From a phage: DNA of 64,000 bases. Of the stretch, positions 23,909 to 62,134 are shown piece after piece (positions within the stretch are counted from its first letter, which is position 1; each line of letters starts with the position of its first letter). The notes beneath the pieces are model-generated. The model saw nothing but the letters and a program-made list of their open reading frames with translations, searched no databases and was not told where the DNA came from. A program made the position numbers and the translations under genes. The stretch is from sequence record PV467749.1. One strand, 5' to 3'.

Positions 23909-24235
23909 TTAACGACCAAATGTTTGAGCAGAGATGCGTGGATCATTGTCAGATACCAAACTTACTGCTGCTGGATAATCCACGAGATTCATTTTAATAC
24001 CATCAATCTCAATAGTTCTCGACCAACGACCGTGGTCAATTAGAATCCATTGTCCTTCTTTGATATCGGTAATGTCTTCACCAACAGAATATACTTTAGC
24101 CCAACGACAACGAATACCACGTATCTTACCATCATCACTTGTCAGTACAATACCACCTGCGGTTTTACGCTCACCATGTTCTAGTTCAGTTACAATAACT
24201 TTACCTTTACAAGCTGTCATTACTTTATTGGTCAT
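23909..24235 (-). CDS. GroES-like co-chaperonin (Cpn10; functional analog of T4 gp31)
   Basis: KTAGGIVLTS matches GroES KSAGGIVLT mobile-loop region; 108 aa. Confidence 0.6.
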   Translation of the reverse strand: MTNKVMTACKGKVIVTELEHGERKTAGGIVLTSDDGKIRGIRCRWAKVYSVGEDITDIKEGQWILIDHGRWSRTIEIDGIKMNLVDYPAAVSLVSDNDPRISAQTFGR

Positions 24236-24646: not shown

Positions 24647-25165
24647 CTACCATTTCAAAAATTCATTTACATCTAGTTTATACTTCAAAGAATCAACCAT
24701 ATGCAAATCAATCAGGAACAAACAATACGAAGCCACTGAACTACCACGCCCAAGACCCCAAAAAATATTGTGCTCTTCCATATAATCAACTAACCAGATC
24801 ATACATCTTAAAAGCTTAGTCATGTTGTAATGTTCAAACAAATCAATCTCATACATTACACGTTCACGGGCTTCATCCGATGTACATTTCTGTAAAAAGT
24901 ACTCACGCAAGTTGATGTTATCGTACACTGGATCATAACGCCATAGCTCATGGTTTTTATCATGTTCTATTGTATAATCCAGCATACGCTGTTCTAAACC
25001 AAATTTTTTACAATTATCGTTAAATTTCAATCGTTCCGGTTCATCAATCTCCTGTAGCTGTAAGTACTGAATATCTGCACCACAGTTGATTGCATACACG
25101 ACTGCATTAAGGTTACATTTTACATCACCATTGGGACTTATAAATCTGTTTCCTTGTACTTTCAT
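24647..25165 (-). CDS. hypothetical protein with DnaE (Pol III alpha) PHP/palm-junction-like motif
   Basis: GLGRGSSVASYCLFLIDLHMVDSLKYKLDVNEFL resembles DnaE [34 protein letters not shown] (recalled from memory, by-eye alignment). Confidence 0.45.
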   Translation of the reverse strand: MKVQGNRFISPNGDVKCNLNAVVYAINCGADIQYLQLQEIDEPERLKFNDNCKKFGLEQRMLDYTIEHDKNHELWRYDPVYDNINLREYFLQKCTSDEARERVMYEIDLFEHYNMTKLLRCMIWLVDYMEEHNIFWGLGRGSSVASYCLFLIDLHMVDSLKYKLDVNEFLKW

Positions 25166-25436
25166 TTTTCTTCTTCTGATCCTCTTCGTTATCCGTTAAG
25201 TAAGAGTTCATGTCAAATATACATGGGTCTTGCTCATCATAGGAGGTTTTTTCTTTTTGTCCCTGACGAATCTCTAATTCAGCATAGCACTGATTCAGAA
25301 CGGTTTGCATGTTACCAACAATCATATCACTCATACCTGCTGCACGAGCAGACGTAATACGCATCGATTGTTCGTTAATTTTCAATTGTAACTCTTTCTC
25401 GGTCATGGTTGATGGATCAAAAAATGGATTGAACAT
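25125..25436 (-). CDS. hypothetical protein (103 aa)
   Basis: ORF track; overlaps downstream ORF by 41 nt in another frame. Confidence 0.4.
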   Translation of the reverse strand: MFNPFFDPSTMTEKELQLKINEQSMRITSARAAGMSDMIVGNMQTVLNQCYAELEIRQGQKEKTSYDEQDPCIFDMNSYLTDNEEDQKKKNESTRKQIYKSQW

Positions 25437-52309: not shown

Positions 52310-53830
52310 TTATTTCCTTTGATTTAACCATTGCTTCATTGCATTTACACGATCAGTACCAATGTGAGGCTGTTGAGGCTGGGATTCAGTTTGTGTAGAA
52401 GTGATTGGATCACTATCTGTATTTAGTGTTACGCTTTCAACACTCGGTGTAGTGCTTGGTTTAGGAGCACCAGAAAGCGTATGACGCAGTGTTTGCATTG
52501 TACTTGGTGGCATTGCCATGTTACCACCGCCGACCTTAGAGATGCCACTGTGACGGAATCCTGACCCATCAGTTTCGAATTGTTGGATTGTGGTTGCGTG
52601 GTCTAGTACACGAAGTGAATCGATATCATATGACATACGCAAACGTGAACCAACTGCACTACTGTTACGTGTTTTCTGGAAGTCAAACCAAAGTTCGCCA
52701 GTTTCTTTACGTGCTTCAATGTAGATAACGTTATCCGCAGTATAGATTTTAGAAATACCACCAGCAATCTGACTTTGACTTTTCTTATCTTCATCCATAC
52801 CACTACGGTTAAACTGTGACGCAGTGAAGACGGTCAAATCCATTTTGGTTGCTAGTGCACGCAATTCTTCAGATACAAATTTATCTTTTGTAAATGTATT
52901 AGATTTATCATTAGGACCAAGACGATTTGATGTTAATAGGTCAAGGTAGTCCACACAAACATAATCTAATTTGACTTCCATTTTAATTTGCAATTCACGA
53001 AGATAACTTTCAATATCATCAGTGGTTGTTACGGATTCTGGTAAACGTTTAATACGCAATATACCACTATCCTTGCCTTCCATTTGAACTCGTAGACCAA
53101 TCTTTTCAGCTTCGTTCTTAACGTTACTTAGCTTAGATTCAGTCATCATACCATAGATACGAACGGCTACCAACTCTTCTGCTAGTTCTAGTGAAATGTA
53201 TGCACCATTCATACCAGCCTTAGCAAAGTTAACTGCTAAGTTCTGTAGTACTACTGATTTACCACCACCAGACGCGGCTGCAAAGATTTCAAGTTCACGG
53301 CGACCAAAACCACCGAATAGTTTATAGTCAAGGGTTTCCCATCCACTCTTGAATGAACCTTGCATAGTGCTCAATGAACGAATGGTATCTTCTGGATTTT
53401 CAAAGATATCAAGACCCAACTCATTCTGTACAGATACTAACATAGCTTCACGAATGAGTTCTTCGATGCCACCATATTTTTTCTGATGTACTAATTCCAT
53501 ACCTTTCTCTACTGCTAGAGCTAGAGCTTTGTGACGGCAAAACTCACTACAGGTATCCAGTACTGCCTGTTTATGAAGTTCTTGTACTTCATAATGATCA
53601 TACTGATAACCACCTTTCACTTCGATATCTTTCAGTGTAGGGGATGAACTATATTTTGCTGCATAATCATGAACGTACTGAATACTTTCATGAAATGTTT
53701 TATCAAAATATTCTGGCTTTAGAATATTTTTACAACGTACAAATAAATCTGGATTACTGAAAACTTGGGATAGTAAGTATTGTTGTGCATTAATCCCATA
53801 CTGTTTGACGTCCACTGTGCTTTGAATCAT
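52310..53830 (-). CDS. 41: replicative DNA helicase (DnaB family; T4 gp41-like)
   Basis: Walker A FAAASGGGKS, DnaB-like N-terminal domain, Walker B-like LDYVCVDYLD; located directly downstream of primase as in T4 61-41. Confidence 0.85.
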   Translation of the reverse strand: MIQSTVDVKQYGINAQQYLLSQVFSNPDLFVRCKNILKPEYFDKTFHESIQYVHDYAAKYSSSPTLKDIEVKGGYQYDHYEVQELHKQAVLDTCSEFCRHKALALAVEKGMELVHQKKYGGIEELIREAMLVSVQNELGLDIFENPEDTIRSLSTMQGSFKSGWETLDYKLFGGFGRRELEIFAAASGGGKSVVLQNLAVNFAKAGMNGAYISLELAEELVAVRIYGMMTESKLSNVKNEAEKIGLRVQMEGKDSGILRIKRLPESVTTTDDIESYLRELQIKMEVKLDYVCVDYLDLLTSNRLGPNDKSNTFTKDKFVSEELRALATKMDLTVFTASQFNRSGMDEDKKSQSQIAGGISKIYTADNVIYIEARKETGELWFDFQKTRNSSAVGSRLRMSYDIDSLRVLDHATTIQQFETDGSGFRHSGISKVGGGNMAMPPSTMQTLRHTLSGAPKPSTTPSVESVTLNTDSDPITSTQTESQPQQPHIGTDRVNAMKQWLNQRK

Positions 53831-53856: not shown

Positions 53857-54912
53857 TTACATCCACTTATCCGTTTGTGCTTTAATATAGAAAGGCTCGT
53901 CAACTATACTATCATGTATCAGTTGTAAACAAAATAATCTTCCAAATCTAGCACATGCTTCGTCAAAATCTTTAATGTGACGTATAGTACTTCCAACACG
54001 TACTGCCCCAAAATCTGGGAAAGAAACACTAAATCCATATTCTAGTGCTTGTTCGATTGTTTGTAATCCATCCTTATCACGGTCTGGTACGATAACAATC
54101 TTTTTACCTTTTTCTTGTGCAGCTTTAAGTACATCTATTTGTACTGCTGACAATTTAAAGTTATTTGCAGAAACACCACCCATTAGTGCTGCATCCATTG
54201 GACCTTCACAAACTAATATAGTTTTAATTCGTTCATCTTGTAACAGATCATAATTATATAGAATATTAGTACTGACCTGATTAATAAAACGATAGGTACT
54301 TCCTGGGTCTTTAAGTTTGTGTCTAGCAGTATATCCGATAATTTTACCGTTCATAACGTATGGTATGATAAATCGGTCATACATTTTATGTTCTTTAGCT
54401 GGACTCCAATACAATTCTAAATCTAATAGATATGGATTTCGCTCATTCACATGATTCAGAACACTAATAAATTCTTGTGGTATTTGCTCTTCTGGTAACG
54501 ATGCCCATTCCCAGAATGTTTTTGAGTTCGGTGGTAATTCACGAACAGTTACACGTTGATATAGTTTAGATGCAGTAGTTTCTTGTTCTGCAAAGTCTCC
54601 ACTATCAACCATTTCTTTAATGTAAAATTTAGCTAGTTCTATTTCCTTATCCTGTGCACCAAAAGAAATGAGCAAAGACTCCATATCTTTGCTCATATAT
54701 TTTCCAGGTTGCCACCCAGTTTTTAGACTACAGTTAAAACAGTTATAAGAAACAGAACCATCTGCGTTAAACATATGATTGCCGCGATTTTTAGTATCGG
54801 GGCGTGAATGACCACGGAACACACAAGCAGGACAATTGTGATGTGTCCACATACCAATTCCTGGTACTGGGTCATTCATGATTTGTGCCATGATGTTTTG
54901 TACAGCGTTCAT
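53857..54912 (-). CDS. 61: DNA primase (zinc-finger plus TOPRIM; T4 gp61-like)
   Basis: Zinc-binding HHNCPAC...CFNC, TOPRIM VCEGPMDA and VPDRDKDG. Confidence 0.8.
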   Translation of the reverse strand: MNAVQNIMAQIMNDPVPGIGMWTHHNCPACVFRGHSRPDTKNRGNHMFNADGSVSYNCFNCSLKTGWQPGKYMSKDMESLLISFGAQDKEIELAKFYIKEMVDSGDFAEQETTASKLYQRVTVRELPPNSKTFWEWASLPEEQIPQEFISVLNHVNERNPYLLDLELYWSPAKEHKMYDRFIIPYVMNGKIIGYTARHKLKDPGSTYRFINQVSTNILYNYDLLQDERIKTILVCEGPMDAALMGGVSANNFKLSAVQIDVLKAAQEKGKKIVIVPDRDKDGLQTIEQALEYGFSVSFPDFGAVRVGSTIRHIKDFDEACARFGRLFCLQLIHDSIVDEPFYIKAQTDKWM

Positions 54913-54967: not shown

Positions 54968-55945
54968 TCACCTGCGAATCAAAATTTTAGGAACTGACAG
55001 TAGTGGGTCATAGACTTTTCTTACTGCCGCATAGTCATAAGGAACTGGAACGATCTTAGGATGAATACAAACAACCAATCGCAACCACATGTAATTACCT
55101 TTAAAATTAAATGCTTGAATCCCATCTAACGCTTTAGGGAATCCATTTTCATCAATATCATTTTCGATATATTCTTTACCATCCAATTTAACAATAAACC
55201 ATTTATAGTTTTCGTTATCAGTTGGTGCGTTATTACACAAACATCCTTGTAATTGAATTCTACCAATGAATTTATCAAAGTACATTGCAATAGTACTAAG
55301 ACCATCAACTAATCCGTACTGCATTTGTGCAGGAAGGGGAGATGTTGCCATTATATCAAATTCACCAATAACGCCACGAGCGATTGGTTCATGATACAAG
55401 CGTTTGATGGTAGTCCATGCTGGGTTTTTATTAACAGATACTTCAATACTTGGCACAAACACAGGAGCAGCTTGGTCGGAAATGATCAATTCAGCAGAGG
55501 CTTCATAATCAAGACCAGTGTATAAGTACTGTGTAGGTTCAATCAAGGAACCATCCATTGTTACTTTAGTAATACTCCATCTATATTTTGAACCAGGACT
55601 AGTATCCTGAATTACACCAGCAGGAACAATACATCCATAATATACTTTTTTACTATTGCCTAATGTTTGTCTTGCTTGTCCACTTTCTGATAGCCATGAT
55701 GGTTTTTGTTTATCCAAAACTACATCGAATAATTTAGTATTGTTTCTAGCATCAAAAATCATGAATGTTAGATATTCGTTATCTTTTAGTAATGTATATT
55801 TTCCATCAGCGTTATGCACTGTGAATGATAAATTGTTATTTGCACCTCTGTATATTGTAAGTTTCTCATTGCTATATGGCATATTAAAATTGCCCAATGA
55901 TACTTCTTGGTTATAAGGGTACATAAACACGCCGTGATGAGCCAT
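54968..55945 (-). CDS. hypothetical protein (about 325 aa)
   Basis: ORF track 54968..56179; ATG at codon 79 (MAHHGVFMYPY...) has AAGGA SD; upstream extension overlaps a divergent plus-strand gene. Confidence 0.5.
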   Translation of the reverse strand: MAHHGVFMYPYNQEVSLGNFNMPYSNEKLTIYRGANNNLSFTVHNADGKYTLLKDNEYLTFMIFDARNNTKLFDVVLDKQKPSWLSESGQARQTLGNSKKVYYGCIVPAGVIQDTSPGSKYRWSITKVTMDGSLIEPTQYLYTGLDYEASAELIISDQAAPVFVPSIEVSVNKNPAWTTIKRLYHEPIARGVIGEFDIMATSPLPAQMQYGLVDGLSTIAMYFDKFIGRIQLQGCLCNNAPTDNENYKWFIVKLDGKEYIENDIDENGFPKALDGIQAFNFKGNYMWLRLVVCIHPKIVPVPYDYAAVRKVYDPLLSVPKILIRR

Positions 55946-55970
55946 AGTTTTTCCTTCCATAAATAATAGG

Positions 55971-55982
55971 TATAAATTTATA
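55971..55982. promoter_or_regulatory. palindromic TATAAATTTATA element in divergent intergenic region
   Basis: Perfect 12-bp palindrome giving TATAAATT (7/8 match to T4 late core TATAAATA) on both strands, between divergent genes 54968..55945 and 56003..56356. Confidence 0.3.
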
Positions 55983-56002
55983 CTAATATTTATGGAACTC
56001 AT

Positions 56003-56356
56003 ATGAATCAATATAATACTATTCCACCATTTATCACGGTAGTTCAGTGTGATGGTAAAACTTTCATTGGTATTATCAAGATAAAAAGTAAACAGTATAC
56101 TACTCTTTACTGCTTTGATGATATGGATGAACCAATGCAAGATGAATTGTTGGGTATAGCACATGATTGGTGGTGGCAAAGCAACAGGTCAATTCCAGTC
56201 TGTCTATTCTTCCAAGAAGAGATGGAGAAATTTGAACCTTACACACAGAGATTCGATACCCCTGCGGTGAATTTCGTTTGTGGTCCAGTAGTTTCTTTAA
56301 GTGATTTGCCACAAAAACGCATCAAGCGTCGTAATGTGGCTCTTAAGAAGAAGTAA
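56003..56356 (+). CDS. hypothetical protein (117 aa), plus-strand
   Basis: ORF track; ATG start; Trp-rich HDWWWQ and basic C-terminus; convergent with 56343..56981. Confidence 0.45.
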   Translation: MNQYNTIPPFITVVQCDGKTFIGIIKIKSKQYTTLYCFDDMDEPMQDELLGIAHDWWWQSNRSIPVCLFFQEEMEKFEPYTQRFDTPAVNFVCGPVVSLSDLPQKRIKRRNVALKKK

Positions 56357-56981
56357 GATGTTCAACTAAAGCGTTAAGTTGAACTACAATCATTAAGCTG
56401 TATGCATAAGCATGTGGCTTTTTGAAATATCGTAACTTATTTCCTGCTTGGTCTGTGCCAATAGTACTGTAATCCCATATAGTGGATTCAACTTCACTCC
56501 ATGTATTCATACTTTGGCACTGCCTTTTTCCAGGACGAATCATTGCAATAAACATTGCAAGTTCATCAATGGATTTAGGTTTCCACACATTTAATAATGT
56601 AACGTGTTTTTTAATCTGTGAAAGATGTTCAACTATTTCTGGTTCTAACAGAAGATCCCAATTAGGTTCCTGATTCATTAGTTCTTTTAAATGTGCTCTA
56701 TCACGAACATACTGGTAAGCCGATTGTGACAGGATATCTACCTTTTGATATCCCAAGCGTTCGGCTTCTTTATATTGTATGCTGGCTAAACCAGTGATAG
56801 GGTCAATTGGTATATTATCAAAATGAACACCACTGTTATGGGGGATTAAACCATCCTCCGTAATTTTTTCTGTACTTCGCACACAAGGAAGCTGTGCAAT
56901 CACTGACTTACTATCTTTAAAGTCAATGTCGATATCTGTTCGTGCTTTACGGTACGAATTAGAATTTGTCGAATCCTGCAT
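56343..56981 (-). CDS. hypothetical protein with DnaE fingers-domain-like motifs
   Basis: IDELAMFIAMIRPG and KKPHAYAYSLMIVVQL resemble DnaE ...FEDMIALVALFRPGP and GFNKSHSAAYALVSYQ (recalled, by-eye). Confidence 0.45.
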   Translation of the reverse strand: MQDSTNSNSYRKARTDIDIDFKDSKSVIAQLPCVRSTEKITEDGLIPHNSGVHFDNIPIDPITGLASIQYKEAERLGYQKVDILSQSAYQYVRDRAHLKELMNQEPNWDLLLEPEIVEHLSQIKKHVTLLNVWKPKSIDELAMFIAMIRPGKRQCQSMNTWSEVESTIWDYSTIGTDQAGNKLRYFKKPHAYAYSLMIVVQLNALVEHLTSS

Positions 56982-57288
56982 TTTTGATTTGCTCCTGCAA
57001 TTTGTTTACAGTGTTAGATAATTTGGTTACCTGATTTTCTAACATTGTACACTTTTGTTTGGTCTTTGACAACTCTTGACTTAGACCAAAGAATCTTTCC
57101 TCATGTCTTTCAACCATACTGATAATTTTTTCTACACGAACAGGATCGTGCACCTGAAAGGTTTTACCATCAAGTGTAATTTCAGTTATAGAACCCTGTC
57201 TAAGCAATGATAAAGATTTAGATTTATCTGCTTTAGGCACAGGTACATACCCTTCTGGTATTTTATTATATATACTTTTTCCATTCAT
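56959..57288 (-). CDS. hypothetical protein (109 aa), C-terminal coiled coil
   Basis: ORF track. Confidence 0.4.
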   Translation of the reverse strand: MNGKSIYNKIPEGYVPVPKADKSKSLSLLRQGSITEITLDGKTFQVHDPVRVEKIISMVERHEERFFGLSQELSKTKQKCTMLENQVTKLSNTVNKLQEQIKNAGFDKF

Positions 57289-57995
57289 AATCCAGCCTCA
57301 CGTAGCATACTTTTTATTTCATCACATTCCTTTTTGTACTTTATAGTTTTAACCTCAAAGTAACTAGGATCAATGTATTTAAGTATATACTCGATTTCAG
57401 AGTTAGAGAGATTCTTGAAAAACTTATTAGTACTTTCTTTTGGTGCTAACCAGATAATCCAAGGTGAAATCTTACCACTCTCAATCCATGCAATTGCACG
57501 GGCAGAACTCACATTGGAAAAAAACTTATTCCACTCCAAGTTCAGATTCTGACCCCATTCCACCATCGCAACAACACTACGGGAAACCGCAGCATTGGGA
57601 GATTCTGAACGAATACAATCTAATATCCATTCATCCTTTGCTTTATAAGTACTCCATTCCATAATAGGACGGTTTCTTACAATTAGACTTTTTACAAAAC
57701 CATCAATATCTAAAATATCACGGTTGTTCAAATAATAAATTGCAAAATCATAAAAATCACTAAAGTACTTTGATTTTATAAAAGCCATTAATGGTTCAAC
57801 TCCCTTCTTGAAAGGGAAATGGTTTAACTCCATGAATTGCATATAAATGCGAAAAGCCTCCCTCATGGGGCGGCTATCACGATCTTCGTAGCGGTCACGT
57901 TTAACACACTTATGTGTGTTAACTGTGTCTTCGCGTTTAAATTCTTTATCACAGAACTTACATTTGTATACGGGACTACTTGATTTCTTTGCCAT
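57285..57995 (-). CDS. hypothetical protein with N-terminal C2H2-like zinc finger
   Basis: YKCKFCDKEFKREDTVNTHKC. Confidence 0.5.
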   Translation of the reverse strand: MAKKSSSPVYKCKFCDKEFKREDTVNTHKCVKRDRYEDRDSRPMREAFRIYMQFMELNHFPFKKGVEPLMAFIKSKYFSDFYDFAIYYLNNRDILDIDGFVKSLIVRNRPIMEWSTYKAKDEWILDCIRSESPNAAVSRSVVAMVEWGQNLNLEWNKFFSNVSSARAIAWIESGKISPWIIWLAPKESTNKFFKNLSNSEIEYILKYIDPSYFEVKTIKYKKECDEIKSMLREAGL

Positions 57996-61315: not shown

Positions 61316-62134
61316 TTAATTAGTTCGAGTATTATATTCGTACTCAAATGTATATACTAAATCTTTATCACAGTTTGGGTTACTTGCATCAAGGATATCA
61401 CTGTTAGTAATCATCCATTCAATATAGTTCAATGGAACAGTTTCCATTGGTTCGCCTTTGTGTTTACCAAATGGCATGAATTTATAACGCATTGGTGTAT
61501 TACAGAATGTTACTATTTGTTCACCAATGTCACCATTAGGGTCAATATGACCACGTTCAATAGCAACTTCAATCAATTTGATTAGAACTTGGTAACACAT
61601 GAATACGTCATCTTTTGCTGCGTGAGCATTCACTGCACGATGTACGTCACGATAGCAACCAAATTTATACCACAAATAACTTAGAGTTAAGTTTTTGAAT
61701 TCAGTGTCTTCTGCAAACATCTTCTTAGCTAAACGAAGAGTACAAATCCATTTATCTTCATCGAGCAAGTACTGTGAAACTGAGTTACGATATTTATATT
61801 CGTTATCTACCATCATTCGGCGGTCAAATTGAACGTTGTGTCCAATAAAATAATCACGACAGCCCATGAGTGCGTCGATGTTTTCTAAGTCATCTTTATA
61901 ACCAATGCAGTTTGCTACATCTTCAGTACTGATAAAATGCACAGCACTTGCTTCTGGTGGTATATCTTTTAGTGGTTTATAACGCAAAGTGTAGTTATCA
62001 ATAGTATCAATATTCTCATGTGCACCGTGAGGATATGAAATACTAAATTCAATAATATCATCTTCACTTTCTACACCAGTCGTTTCGGTGTCTAGTACTG
62101 ATACGTTTGATAGAAACTCATCTAATTTTGTCAT
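61316..62134 (-). CDS. DnaQ-like DEDDh 3'-5' exonuclease with C-terminal FGKHKG-containing domain
   Basis: Exo I LDTETTG, Exo II HNVQFD, Exo III HRAVNAHAAKDD; C-terminal MPFGKHKGEPMETVPLNYIEW. Confidence 0.65.
   Translation of the reverse strand: MTKLDEFLSNVSVLDTETTGVESEDDIIEFSISYPHGAHENIDTIDNYTLRYKPLKDIPPEASAVHFISTEDVANCIGYKDDLENIDALMGCRDYFIGHNVQFDRRMMVDNEYKYRNSVSQYLLDEDKWICTLRLAKKMFAEDTEFKNLTLSYLWYKFGCYRDVHRAVNAHAAKDDVFMCYQVLIKLIEVAIERGHIDPNGDIGEQIVTFCNTPMRYKFMPFGKHKGEPMETVPLNYIEWMITNSDILDASNPNCDKDLVYTFEYEYNTRTN

Follow-up and report, generated by a model that had tools for sequence, protein, structure and literature searches.

A 64,000-nucleotide stretch of phage DNA (sequence record PV467749.1, hereafter the window) contains two short open reading frames (ORFs) that resemble parts of DnaE, the DNA polymerase III alpha subunit (Pol III alpha) and a polymerase of the C-family. 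The question raised by this locus is whether these ORFs are the debris of a dnaE gene, fragments put to separate uses or the pieces of a working enzyme. A previous sequence-only reading had noticed in the first ORF a segment similar to the GRGS region of DnaE, had pointed out the second as another DnaE-like fragment and had considered decayed remnants or domesticated fragments. The two ORFs are the following:

24647..25165, minus strand: 172 amino acids, proposed N-terminal half (N-half) of a split mini-DnaE; translation identical to the sequence quoted in the previous reading.
56343..56981, minus strand: 212 amino acids, proposed C-terminal half (C-half) of the split mini-DnaE; predicted palm and fingers fold of C-family polymerases.

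The analyses reported here indicate that the two ORFs are very probably complementary halves of one conserved enzyme core. From comparisons of sequences and predicted structures, they probably represent a split and miniaturised C-family (DnaE-like) polymerase core, active as a two-subunit enzyme in an accessory replication role.

Homology and colinearity with DnaE

The N-half is composed of a family-specific N-terminal region (residues 1-85) and of the palm helices with the triphosphate loop G139-R-G-S142 (residues ~85-172). It matches the Pfam profile PF07733 (DNA_pol3_alpha) with E=5.8e-9 and 36.4 bits, above the gathering score of 23.9, residues 90-171 being aligned with profile positions 15-95 of 260. 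Among the PDB chains, the family profile, built from 29 diverse homologues, recovered none other than Pol III alpha, the match covering E. coli residues 320-393, and hhalign aligned the N-half with E. coli DnaE 321-395 with a probability of 86%. Judged from these profile comparisons, the likeness of the N-half to DnaE is well above chance. The GRGS-like segment recognised by eye is thus borne out by the Pfam, PDB profile and hhalign searches, all of which relate the protein to DnaE/PolC, and the E. coli DnaE segment cited on that occasion proved essentially right when compared with the E. coli K-12 sequence. We also agree that a protein of 172 residues alone cannot be a polymerase. In the alignment of the 29 homologues (down to 29% identity), the residues G137, G139-S143, S146, Y147, E168 and F169 are invariant, and all the C-terminal ends are located within a few residues of the motif FLK. 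The G-[GS] triphosphate loop of the Pol-beta-like palm (E. coli G361-R-G-S364) is found on the N-half, for which AlphaFold2 (AF2) predicts a confident fold of the protein alone, with a low-confidence C-terminus.

The C-half is barely visible to sequence tools. Pfam gives only a match with the finger domain (E=0.04), the family profile has no match among the PDB sequences and hhalign against the single E. coli sequence is weak (probability 1.7%), the motifs K-x-D and RPG being nonetheless aligned correctly. As these sequence profiles are weak, the homology was taken from structure searches, from fused homologues and from a concatenated profile. The AF2 model of the C-half has a predicted local distance difference test (pLDDT) score of 91.7, residues 1-16 being of low confidence. 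When this model was compared with the PDB by Foldseek, Pol III alpha represented all ten best matches, and its structures are the best and sole significant structural matches; the description of 56343..56981 as a second DnaE-like fragment was correct. Across 28 homologues (down to 40% identity), the invariant residues are D16, D18, D20, H48, G51, K80, D82, R149, P150, K152, K187, H190 and Y194. The DnaE-specific finger motifs RPG and K-x-H-x-x-x-Y are invariant, as is the next helix. The catalytic aspartate triad (E. coli D401, D403 and D555) corresponds to D16, D18 and D82 of the C-half and is carried by another polypeptide than the GS loop. The motifs correspond as follows (coordinates of E. 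coli K-12 DnaE as reference):

N-half G139-R-G-S142: E. coli G361-R-G-S364.
N-half E168-F-L-K171-W, followed by the stop: E. coli R390-F-L-N393.
C-half RKART-D16-I-D18-I-D20-F: E. coli D401-F-D403-V-D405-F (catalytic pair).
C-half H48-N-S-G51: probably E. coli H511-A-G-G514.
C-half K80-V-D82: E. coli K553-F-D555 (third catalytic aspartate).
C-half R149-P-G: E. coli R639-P-G.
C-half K188-P-H190: E. coli K758-S-H760.

Relative to E. coli DnaE, the N-half extends as far as F391-L392, and the C-half begins ~15 residues ahead of D401/D403. The two halves are adjacent and non-overlapping, total 384 residues and are colinear with DnaE, the break being located between ERFL and PDxDxDF, in the surface loop NPERxxMP. 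Three independent tests confirm this colinearity. On one hand, the fused homologue P0293 (375 amino acids) aligns with residues 5-171 of the N-half (32% identity, E=2e-24) and then, after a linker of 9 residues, with residues 15-202 of the C-half (36% identity, E=1e-32). On the other hand, P0293 matches the profile phrog_405 of full-length phage DnaE without a break over positions 357-462, across the junction (E=6e-15). Finally, a concatenated profile was built from the pairs of the window, PBECO4, RaK2, CBB and Slickus01 and from the fused proteins, and compared with a profile containing E. coli DnaE and the spliced dnaE products of two phages. The probability is 98.4% (E=7e-15), query positions 85-327 being aligned with E. 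coli 303-645 and positions 356-375 with 754-773. The derivation from DnaE and the relation between the two ORFs, as proposed from the letters alone, stand; that the fragments are adjacent parts of one core had been missed, and neither the decay nor the frameshift considered at the same time is retained (see below).

The mini-core corresponds to E. coli residues ~303-780 minus ~170 residues. The thumb (E. coli ~433-510) was not found: ~27 residues separate DxDxD from H-x-x-G, versus ~105 in E. coli, the placement of residues being of low confidence here. Between RPG and K-x-H, 35 residues are present versus 115 in E. coli, and ~80 residues of the fingers are apparently deleted. From the sequence, this stretch contains E. 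coli R709/R710, which we take to be contacts of the deoxynucleoside triphosphate (dNTP); K152 or R153 of the C-half may be candidates for replacing them. No PHP domain is detected by Pfam in the N-half, where ~85 residues precede the palm. The beta-clamp-binding motif, the HhH and OB domains and the C-terminal domain were not found in the C-half, which ends near E. coli residue ~780, and nothing corresponds to the tau-binding parts beyond this residue. Six-frame translations of the window searched with both family profiles revealed no further piece of DnaE, although very divergent pieces could escape such a search.

Conservation and co-occurrence of the two halves

The window derives from an Asteriusvirus-like jumbo phage. 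It shares 99-99.5% identity with jumbo myophages of E. coli of 350-386 kb, such as Ecwhy_1, WPEC3, fEgEco12 and TH47 (99.3% for fEgEco12 with a 2-kb query), and ~82% identity with the Asteriusvirus phages PBECO4 and 121Q. Selection was compared among the window, PBECO4, RaK2 and CBB. For both halves, the proportion of synonymous differences (pS) is comprised between 0.53 and 0.82, near saturation, that of nonsynonymous differences (pN) between 0.03 and 0.19, and the ratio of nonsynonymous to synonymous substitution rates (dN/dS) between 0.01 and 0.13. These values indicate strong purifying selection on both halves.

Searches among 5.8 billion proteins and 1.84 billion cluster representatives detected hundreds of homologues. 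Nearly all have a length of ~170-190 residues (N-half) or ~190-220 residues (C-half), and because these half-sized lengths are kept, the split is considered old and stable. In 50,697 phage records, tblastn found both halves in the same genera and invariably at separate loci (genus counts: Escherichia 34/34, Pseudomonas 11/11, Klebsiella 10/11, Salmonella 8/8, Erwinia 8/8, Xanthomonas 4/4 and Yersinia 4/4). Both are present in Rak2-like, PA5oct-like, Atu_ph07-like and smaller myophages. Slickus01 (141 kb) and RsoM2USA at first displayed only the C-half; the N-half was then found 10.8 kb away in Slickus01 (WGH49842.1, E=1e-17) and ~4-5 kb away in RsoM2USA, which is the closest spacing found. The metagenomic contigs containing the N-half and the C-half pair up by identical size. 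The distances between the halves in the other phages are:

Window: 31 kb (31,177 nt).
RaK2, CBB and XaC1: 33-34 kb.
PA5oct: 44 kb.
Xoo-sp13 and CM1: 14-15 kb.
Atu_ph07: 182 kb.
Phosso: 224 kb.

Which half comes first on the coding strand depends on the lineage. Lineages with adjacent halves, representing an intermediate state, were sought; the C-half was found to have other neighbours than the N-half in Slickus01 and in the metagenomic locus L016.

These results bear on the idea of decaying remnants of a captured host or phage dnaE. The small size of the proteins, the loss of large parts of DnaE and the term 'truncated' used for the 172-residue Pol III alpha in the CBB genome paper (PMC5259590) could suggest such pseudogene debris. 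This idea is contradicted by the dN/dS values given above, by lengths and ends conserved in hundreds of homologues, by the invariance of the catalytic motifs and by the retention of the pair throughout a deep clade, from a 141-kb phage to 490-kb phages. The decay envisaged by the sequence-only reading is rejected as scarcely credible, and the split most likely reflects a two-piece enzyme rather than gene debris.

Another explanation is that the two fragments were domesticated independently and act separately without catalysis, as decoys or inhibitors of the host Pol III or as structural adaptors of the replisome. It would agree with the confident AF2 fold of each half alone, with the position of the genes far apart in different gene strings and with the presence of a PolB in the phage. 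However, the invariant residues are the catalytic and nucleotide-binding ones, shared out between the two proteins, whereas the binding regions of DnaE for epsilon (PHP), beta and tau are those missing. Moreover, both halves were present in each of the genomes examined, and fused forms exist in some cases. We regard independent domestication as quite improbable.

Gene neighbourhoods and a putative two-subunit enzyme

The minus strand carries nearly every gene of the window. The genes close to the two halves are listed below:

57285..57995, minus strand: zinc-finger protein, 236 amino acids, phrog_11058; located upstream in the gene string of the C-half.
56003..56356, plus strand: ORF of 117 amino acids, phrog_11637, unknown function; convergent with the C-half gene and overlapping its 3' end by 14 nt.
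54968..56179, minus strand: virion structural protein, 403 amino acids as listed, with a TTG start; phrog_14467 matches residues 79-403 only, and the true start is probably an internal Met near residue 79.
53857..54912, minus strand: primase (phrog_47, E=9e-29).
52310..53830, minus strand: DnaB-like helicase (Pfam DnaB_C, E=4e-17).
25125..25436, minus strand: ORF of 103 amino acids, phrog_15348; 41 nt (25125..25165) are shared between its 3' end and the start of the N-half.
23909..24235, minus strand: GroES/gp31-like co-chaperonin, 108 amino acids (Pfam Cpn10, E=1e-4); two genes downstream of the N-half.

The primase-helicase pair lies two genes downstream of the C-half, and this linkage is repeated in Slickus01. 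The string composed of the zinc-finger protein, the C-half, the convergent ORF, the primase and the DnaB helicase is kept far outside the Rak2-like phages, having been found in the window, PBECO4, RaK2, CBB, Slickus01 and the metagenomic loci L015 (fused) and L016 (split). A homologue of phrog_11058 is located directly upstream of the C-half in L016 (E=1e-17), and a CxxC-containing ORF occupies this place in Slickus01. The convergent ORF is the sole plus-strand gene of its stretch and has a basic C-terminal tail, KRIKRRNVALKKK. A convergent and overlapping phrog_11637 homologue is in place in PBECO4, RaK2, CBB, L016 and L015, the counterpart in Slickus01 being a weak match; a role as partner subunit or as (antisense) regulator is possible. 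These neighbourhoods, together with that of the fused homologue P0369 (see below), suggest a role in DNA replication, and in priming more particularly.

Inside or beside the window are encoded the primase, the DnaB-like helicase, a clamp loader, gp32, UvsX and a DnaQ-like exonuclease (61316..62134). In fEgEco12, an intact PolB of 1001 amino acids (g356) and a sliding clamp (g359) are both encoded just beyond the limits of the window. Since the phage has its own PolB replicase and clamp, the mini-DnaE would be an additional enzyme. As a side observation, the phage has two GroES/gp31-like co-chaperonin genes, one at 23909..24235 (minus strand) in the window and the other outside it (g361 of fEgEco12).

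In nucleotidyltransferases of the Pol-beta type, the GS loop binds the triphosphate while the DxD strand and a third acidic residue bind two metals; in DnaE, the palm helices and the palm sheet pack together. From the homology, colinearity, conservation, selection, co-occurrence, fused forms and gene context described here, we infer the formation of a complex, its catalysis, its substrate and its biological role as follows. The N-half would provide the palm helices and the GRGS loop, and the C-half the beta-sheet with the three catalytic aspartates and the lysine, plus reduced fingers. As neither half has a complete active site and no intein is found, the halves would have to associate non-covalently, which would rebuild one composite active site. 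The resulting heterodimer of ~44 kDa would be an active nucleotidyltransferase, most probably a short-patch DNA polymerase, and would work beside PolB in the primase-helicase module, for example in the extension of primers before hand-off. In Bacillus, DnaE assists PolC, which serves as a model for this accessory role. That the halves form an active heterodimer is likely; that it is a templated DNA polymerase acting with the primase and helicase is close to an even call.

A rival to non-covalent association is that the halves are joined during or after expression, by a split intein, by RNA trans-splicing or by a programmed frameshift with 25125..25436. Cyanobacterial DnaE is indeed reassembled by a split intein (as cited in PMC3919608), and the 41-nt overlap of 25125..25436 with the start of the N-half, which includes an A-rich stretch, is conserved in PBECO4, RaK2 and CBB (four phage genera with the window). 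Nevertheless, an intein segment of ~100 or ~35 residues is lacking in both halves at the break: only 1-2 residues follow FLK in the N-half, and DxD of the C-half is preceded by ~15 variable residues. An Rfam scan of the window gave no match and no intron signal. The halves are not adjacent exons, as expected around a group I intron or a homing endonuclease, but lie 31,177 nt apart in permuted order, with unrelated conserved genes on their flanks. For the window, an intein or an intron is rejected as an explanation in view of the lack of spare sequence at the break and the empty Rfam scan. Concerning the frameshift, which the sequence-only reading had suggested checking, the frame of the N-half is +1 relative to 25125..25436 (25436 - 25165 = 271), and a +1 shift would be required. 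Neither the distant homologues of ~172 residues nor the fused ones have an N-terminal extension. The ORF 25125..25436, left unannotated in fEgEco12, has no Pfam match and no similarity to DnaE or PHP, and with a dN/dS of 0.24-0.29 it evolves faster than the halves. The frameshift fusion is thus rejected, this ORF is outside the polymerase core, and the overlap, which constrains the C-terminal peptide of the ORF (KKNESTRKQIYKSQW), more likely corresponds to translational coupling than to fusion. Overall, a covalent joining of the halves by any of these routes appears very improbable.

Several observations weigh against an active two-subunit polymerase. Each half is predicted by AF2 to fold confidently alone, and the heterodimer is putative. 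The genes are 31 kb apart in the window, in different gene strings and in permuted order, the C-half being transcribed first, which makes their co-expression uncertain. With an intact PolB of 1001 residues and a sliding clamp, there is no obvious need for a second polymerase. The thumb is missing, the segment with R709/R710 is apparently deleted, R390 is replaced by an invariant Glu, and there is no clamp-binding, HhH or OB domain. Only four clusters of fused forms are known here, and the P0293 group is apparently a secondary re-fusion. As canonical contacts with DNA and dNTP are missing or changed, a templated polymerase activity is uncertain.

These losses also bear on the reading that the heterodimer is active but non-templated, as a Pol-beta-type nucleotidyltransferase involved in tailing, in the addition of nucleotides to a protein or RNA primer or in the synthesis of a nucleotide signal. 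The absence of the thumb, of the distal fingers (R709/R710 region), of the clamp-binding motif and of the OB domain, together with the invariant Glu matching R390, would fit such an enzyme, and exactly the minimal elements of a Pol-beta nucleotidyltransferase (GS loop, DxD and third Asp) are kept. However, the DnaE-specific RPG, K-x-H-x-x-x-Y and following helix are invariant and lie outside this minimal core, and the neighbours are replication genes (primase, helicase and, beside one fused homologue, a 'Replicase'), signalling or defence genes not being linked. We consider the non-templated enzyme unlikely and favour the polymerase core in an accessory role. In a more far-reaching form, which is possible but rather doubtful, the pair would be the smallest known C-family DNA polymerase, a dedicated enzyme of primer extension and hand-off tied to the primase-helicase, and a replisome with PolB and mini-DnaE would operate in a large clade of T4-distant myophages. 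In a variant of this form, the remodelled nucleotide pocket (R390 to Glu, loss of R709/R710) would give a chemistry not seen in DnaE.

Known systems and possible origin of the split

C-family polymerases are viewed as large, single-chain and essentially bacterial replicases that are rare in phages (PMC3919608). With Pol III alpha, the mini-DnaE shares the Pol-beta-like palm fold, the GRGS loop, the DxDxD strand, the third Asp with its preceding Lys, RPG and (N/K)K-x-H. It differs by its size (~384 versus ~1160 residues), by the absence of PHP, by the apparent deletion of the thumb (E. coli 433-510) and of ~80 residues of the fingers, by the lack of anything past ~780 and by its distribution over two genes located 31 kb apart. 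In cyanobacteria, dnaE-n and dnaE-c also represent a C-family polymerase encoded by two distant genes whose products must meet; there, the break is located further downstream and intein halves restore a full-length covalent DnaE by trans-splicing, whereas the phage mini-DnaE has no intein sequence, is broken inside the catalytic palm and would yield a mini-core. Bacillus DnaE3, which acts with PolC, and DnaE2/ImuC are likewise DnaE-type enzymes beside a different main replicase, but they are full-length, single-chain and clamp-binding, and the mini-DnaE may resemble them in role.

Phage 'genes in pieces' include the T4 topoisomerase gp39/gp60, the split NrdA and split gp43 of Aeromonas phage Aeh1 and the split beta/beta' RNA polymerase of phiKZ-like phages. 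As proposed for the mini-DnaE, these are separately translated pieces that reassemble non-covalently, typically after the insertion of a mobile element at a conserved site. Most of them stay adjacent, whereas the halves of the mini-DnaE are dispersed over 4-224 kb in a lineage-dependent order. To our knowledge, no C-family polymerase has been described among them.

Interruptions close to the same place are found in the full-length dnaE genes of two other phages:

L020 3742-4355 and 5440-5764: inserts in dnaE of Bacillus phage vB_BceM_WH1, group-I-intron-like.
L021 3771-4573: insert in dnaE of Clostridium phage CS266P1, carrying an I-HmuI-like HNH endonuclease gene.

The WH1 gene is interrupted right after PDVDTD and within GYG-FN-x-SH, between GYG and the FNKSH motif. 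Its inserts match Rfam RF00028 with 32 and 29 bits (E=5e-5 and 6e-4), below the gathering score of 50. The CS266P1 gene is interrupted between RFMRKEKKKLP and DIDVDF. GenBank labels the exons of both as separate 'DNA polymerase III alpha' or hypothetical proteins. Since both genes are interrupted there, mobile elements recurrently target the DNA that codes for the DxD strand, and the split of the mini-DnaE probably arose at this site. In comparison with the mini-DnaE, the interruption is displaced by a few codons at most, being located at DxDxD or immediately before it, but the exons are adjacent, belong to full-length genes and are presumably restored by RNA splicing, whereas the mini-DnaE halves are dispersed. 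A plausible route to the split would be the insertion of a mobile element at the DxD site, followed by the loss of splicing and then by the dispersal of the pieces. The coincidence of the break with sites of introns and homing endonucleases offers a concrete route from mobile elements to dispersed 'genes in pieces'.

The two proteins have so far been annotated separately. Both families are labelled 'DNA polymerase' in PHROGs, a few GenBank records label both ORFs as DnaE-like (e.g. Phosso and Turkey3), and the 212-residue protein is variously called 'hypothetical', 'putative membrane protein' or 'DNA polymerase'. According to the Atu_ph07 paper (PMC6102473), homologues of Pol III alpha and of epsilon are conserved among the Rak2-like phages. 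In the openly searchable literature, we found no published account of the split, only remarks on a 'truncated' or 'conserved' Pol III alpha. The split mini-DnaE is absent from the searchable text of surveys of jumbo-phage or viral replication proteins and of C-family polymerases, and the main text of the PA5oct omics paper does not mention these genes. The annotation has to be corrected, the 172-residue 'truncated' Pol III alpha and the 212-residue protein belonging together. Should the pair of 384 residues prove active, the minimal catalytic core of the C-family would be defined, the palm would be known to accept an interruption between its nucleotide-binding loop and its metal-binding strand, and a compact scaffold for engineering would be available. 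The replication model of the Rak2-, PA5oct- and Atu_ph07-like jumbo phages, which include several candidates for therapy, would then gain a second polymerase.

Other polymerase genes may be split in these phages. The PolB-type DNA polymerase appears as two adjacent ORFs in some relatives, such as Slickus01 (L017 2558-5196, WGH49721 and WGH49722), and likewise in Atu_ph07 (gp276/gp277; PMC6102473). This phage clade may be generally prone to the splitting of polymerase genes.

Fused single-chain homologues of the mini-DnaE are represented by four clusters only, all metagenomic: P0293, P0380 and P0381 (375-376 residues) and P0369 (336 residues). They begin at the same point as the N-half, except P0369, which begins later and is devoid of the N-terminal ~80 residues. 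The P0293 group occupies the locus of the C-half, with the same convergent ORF and structural-gene neighbours as the 65%-identical split relative in L016, which is more in keeping with a secondary re-fusion than with an ancestral form. An unsplit lineage may be represented by P0369:

L005 1516-4181 (JGI metagenome contig Ga0669126_0033275, 8 kb): P0369, single-chain mini-DnaE, 336 amino acids.

The P0369 gene overlaps by 4 nt the gene of a PF03090 'Replicase' protein of 552 residues, and the two may constitute a minimal replication module of a small mobile element. Finally, P0293 matched in the PHROG library several families that cover parts of DnaE only, namely 13169 (463 residues), 21652 (476 residues), 7513 (461 residues) and 11165 (782 residues), a sign that DnaE may exist in pieces or in shortened form in further phage groups too. 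The PB1-like Pseudomonas phages, with many 'DNA polymerase III alpha' matches, may be an example.

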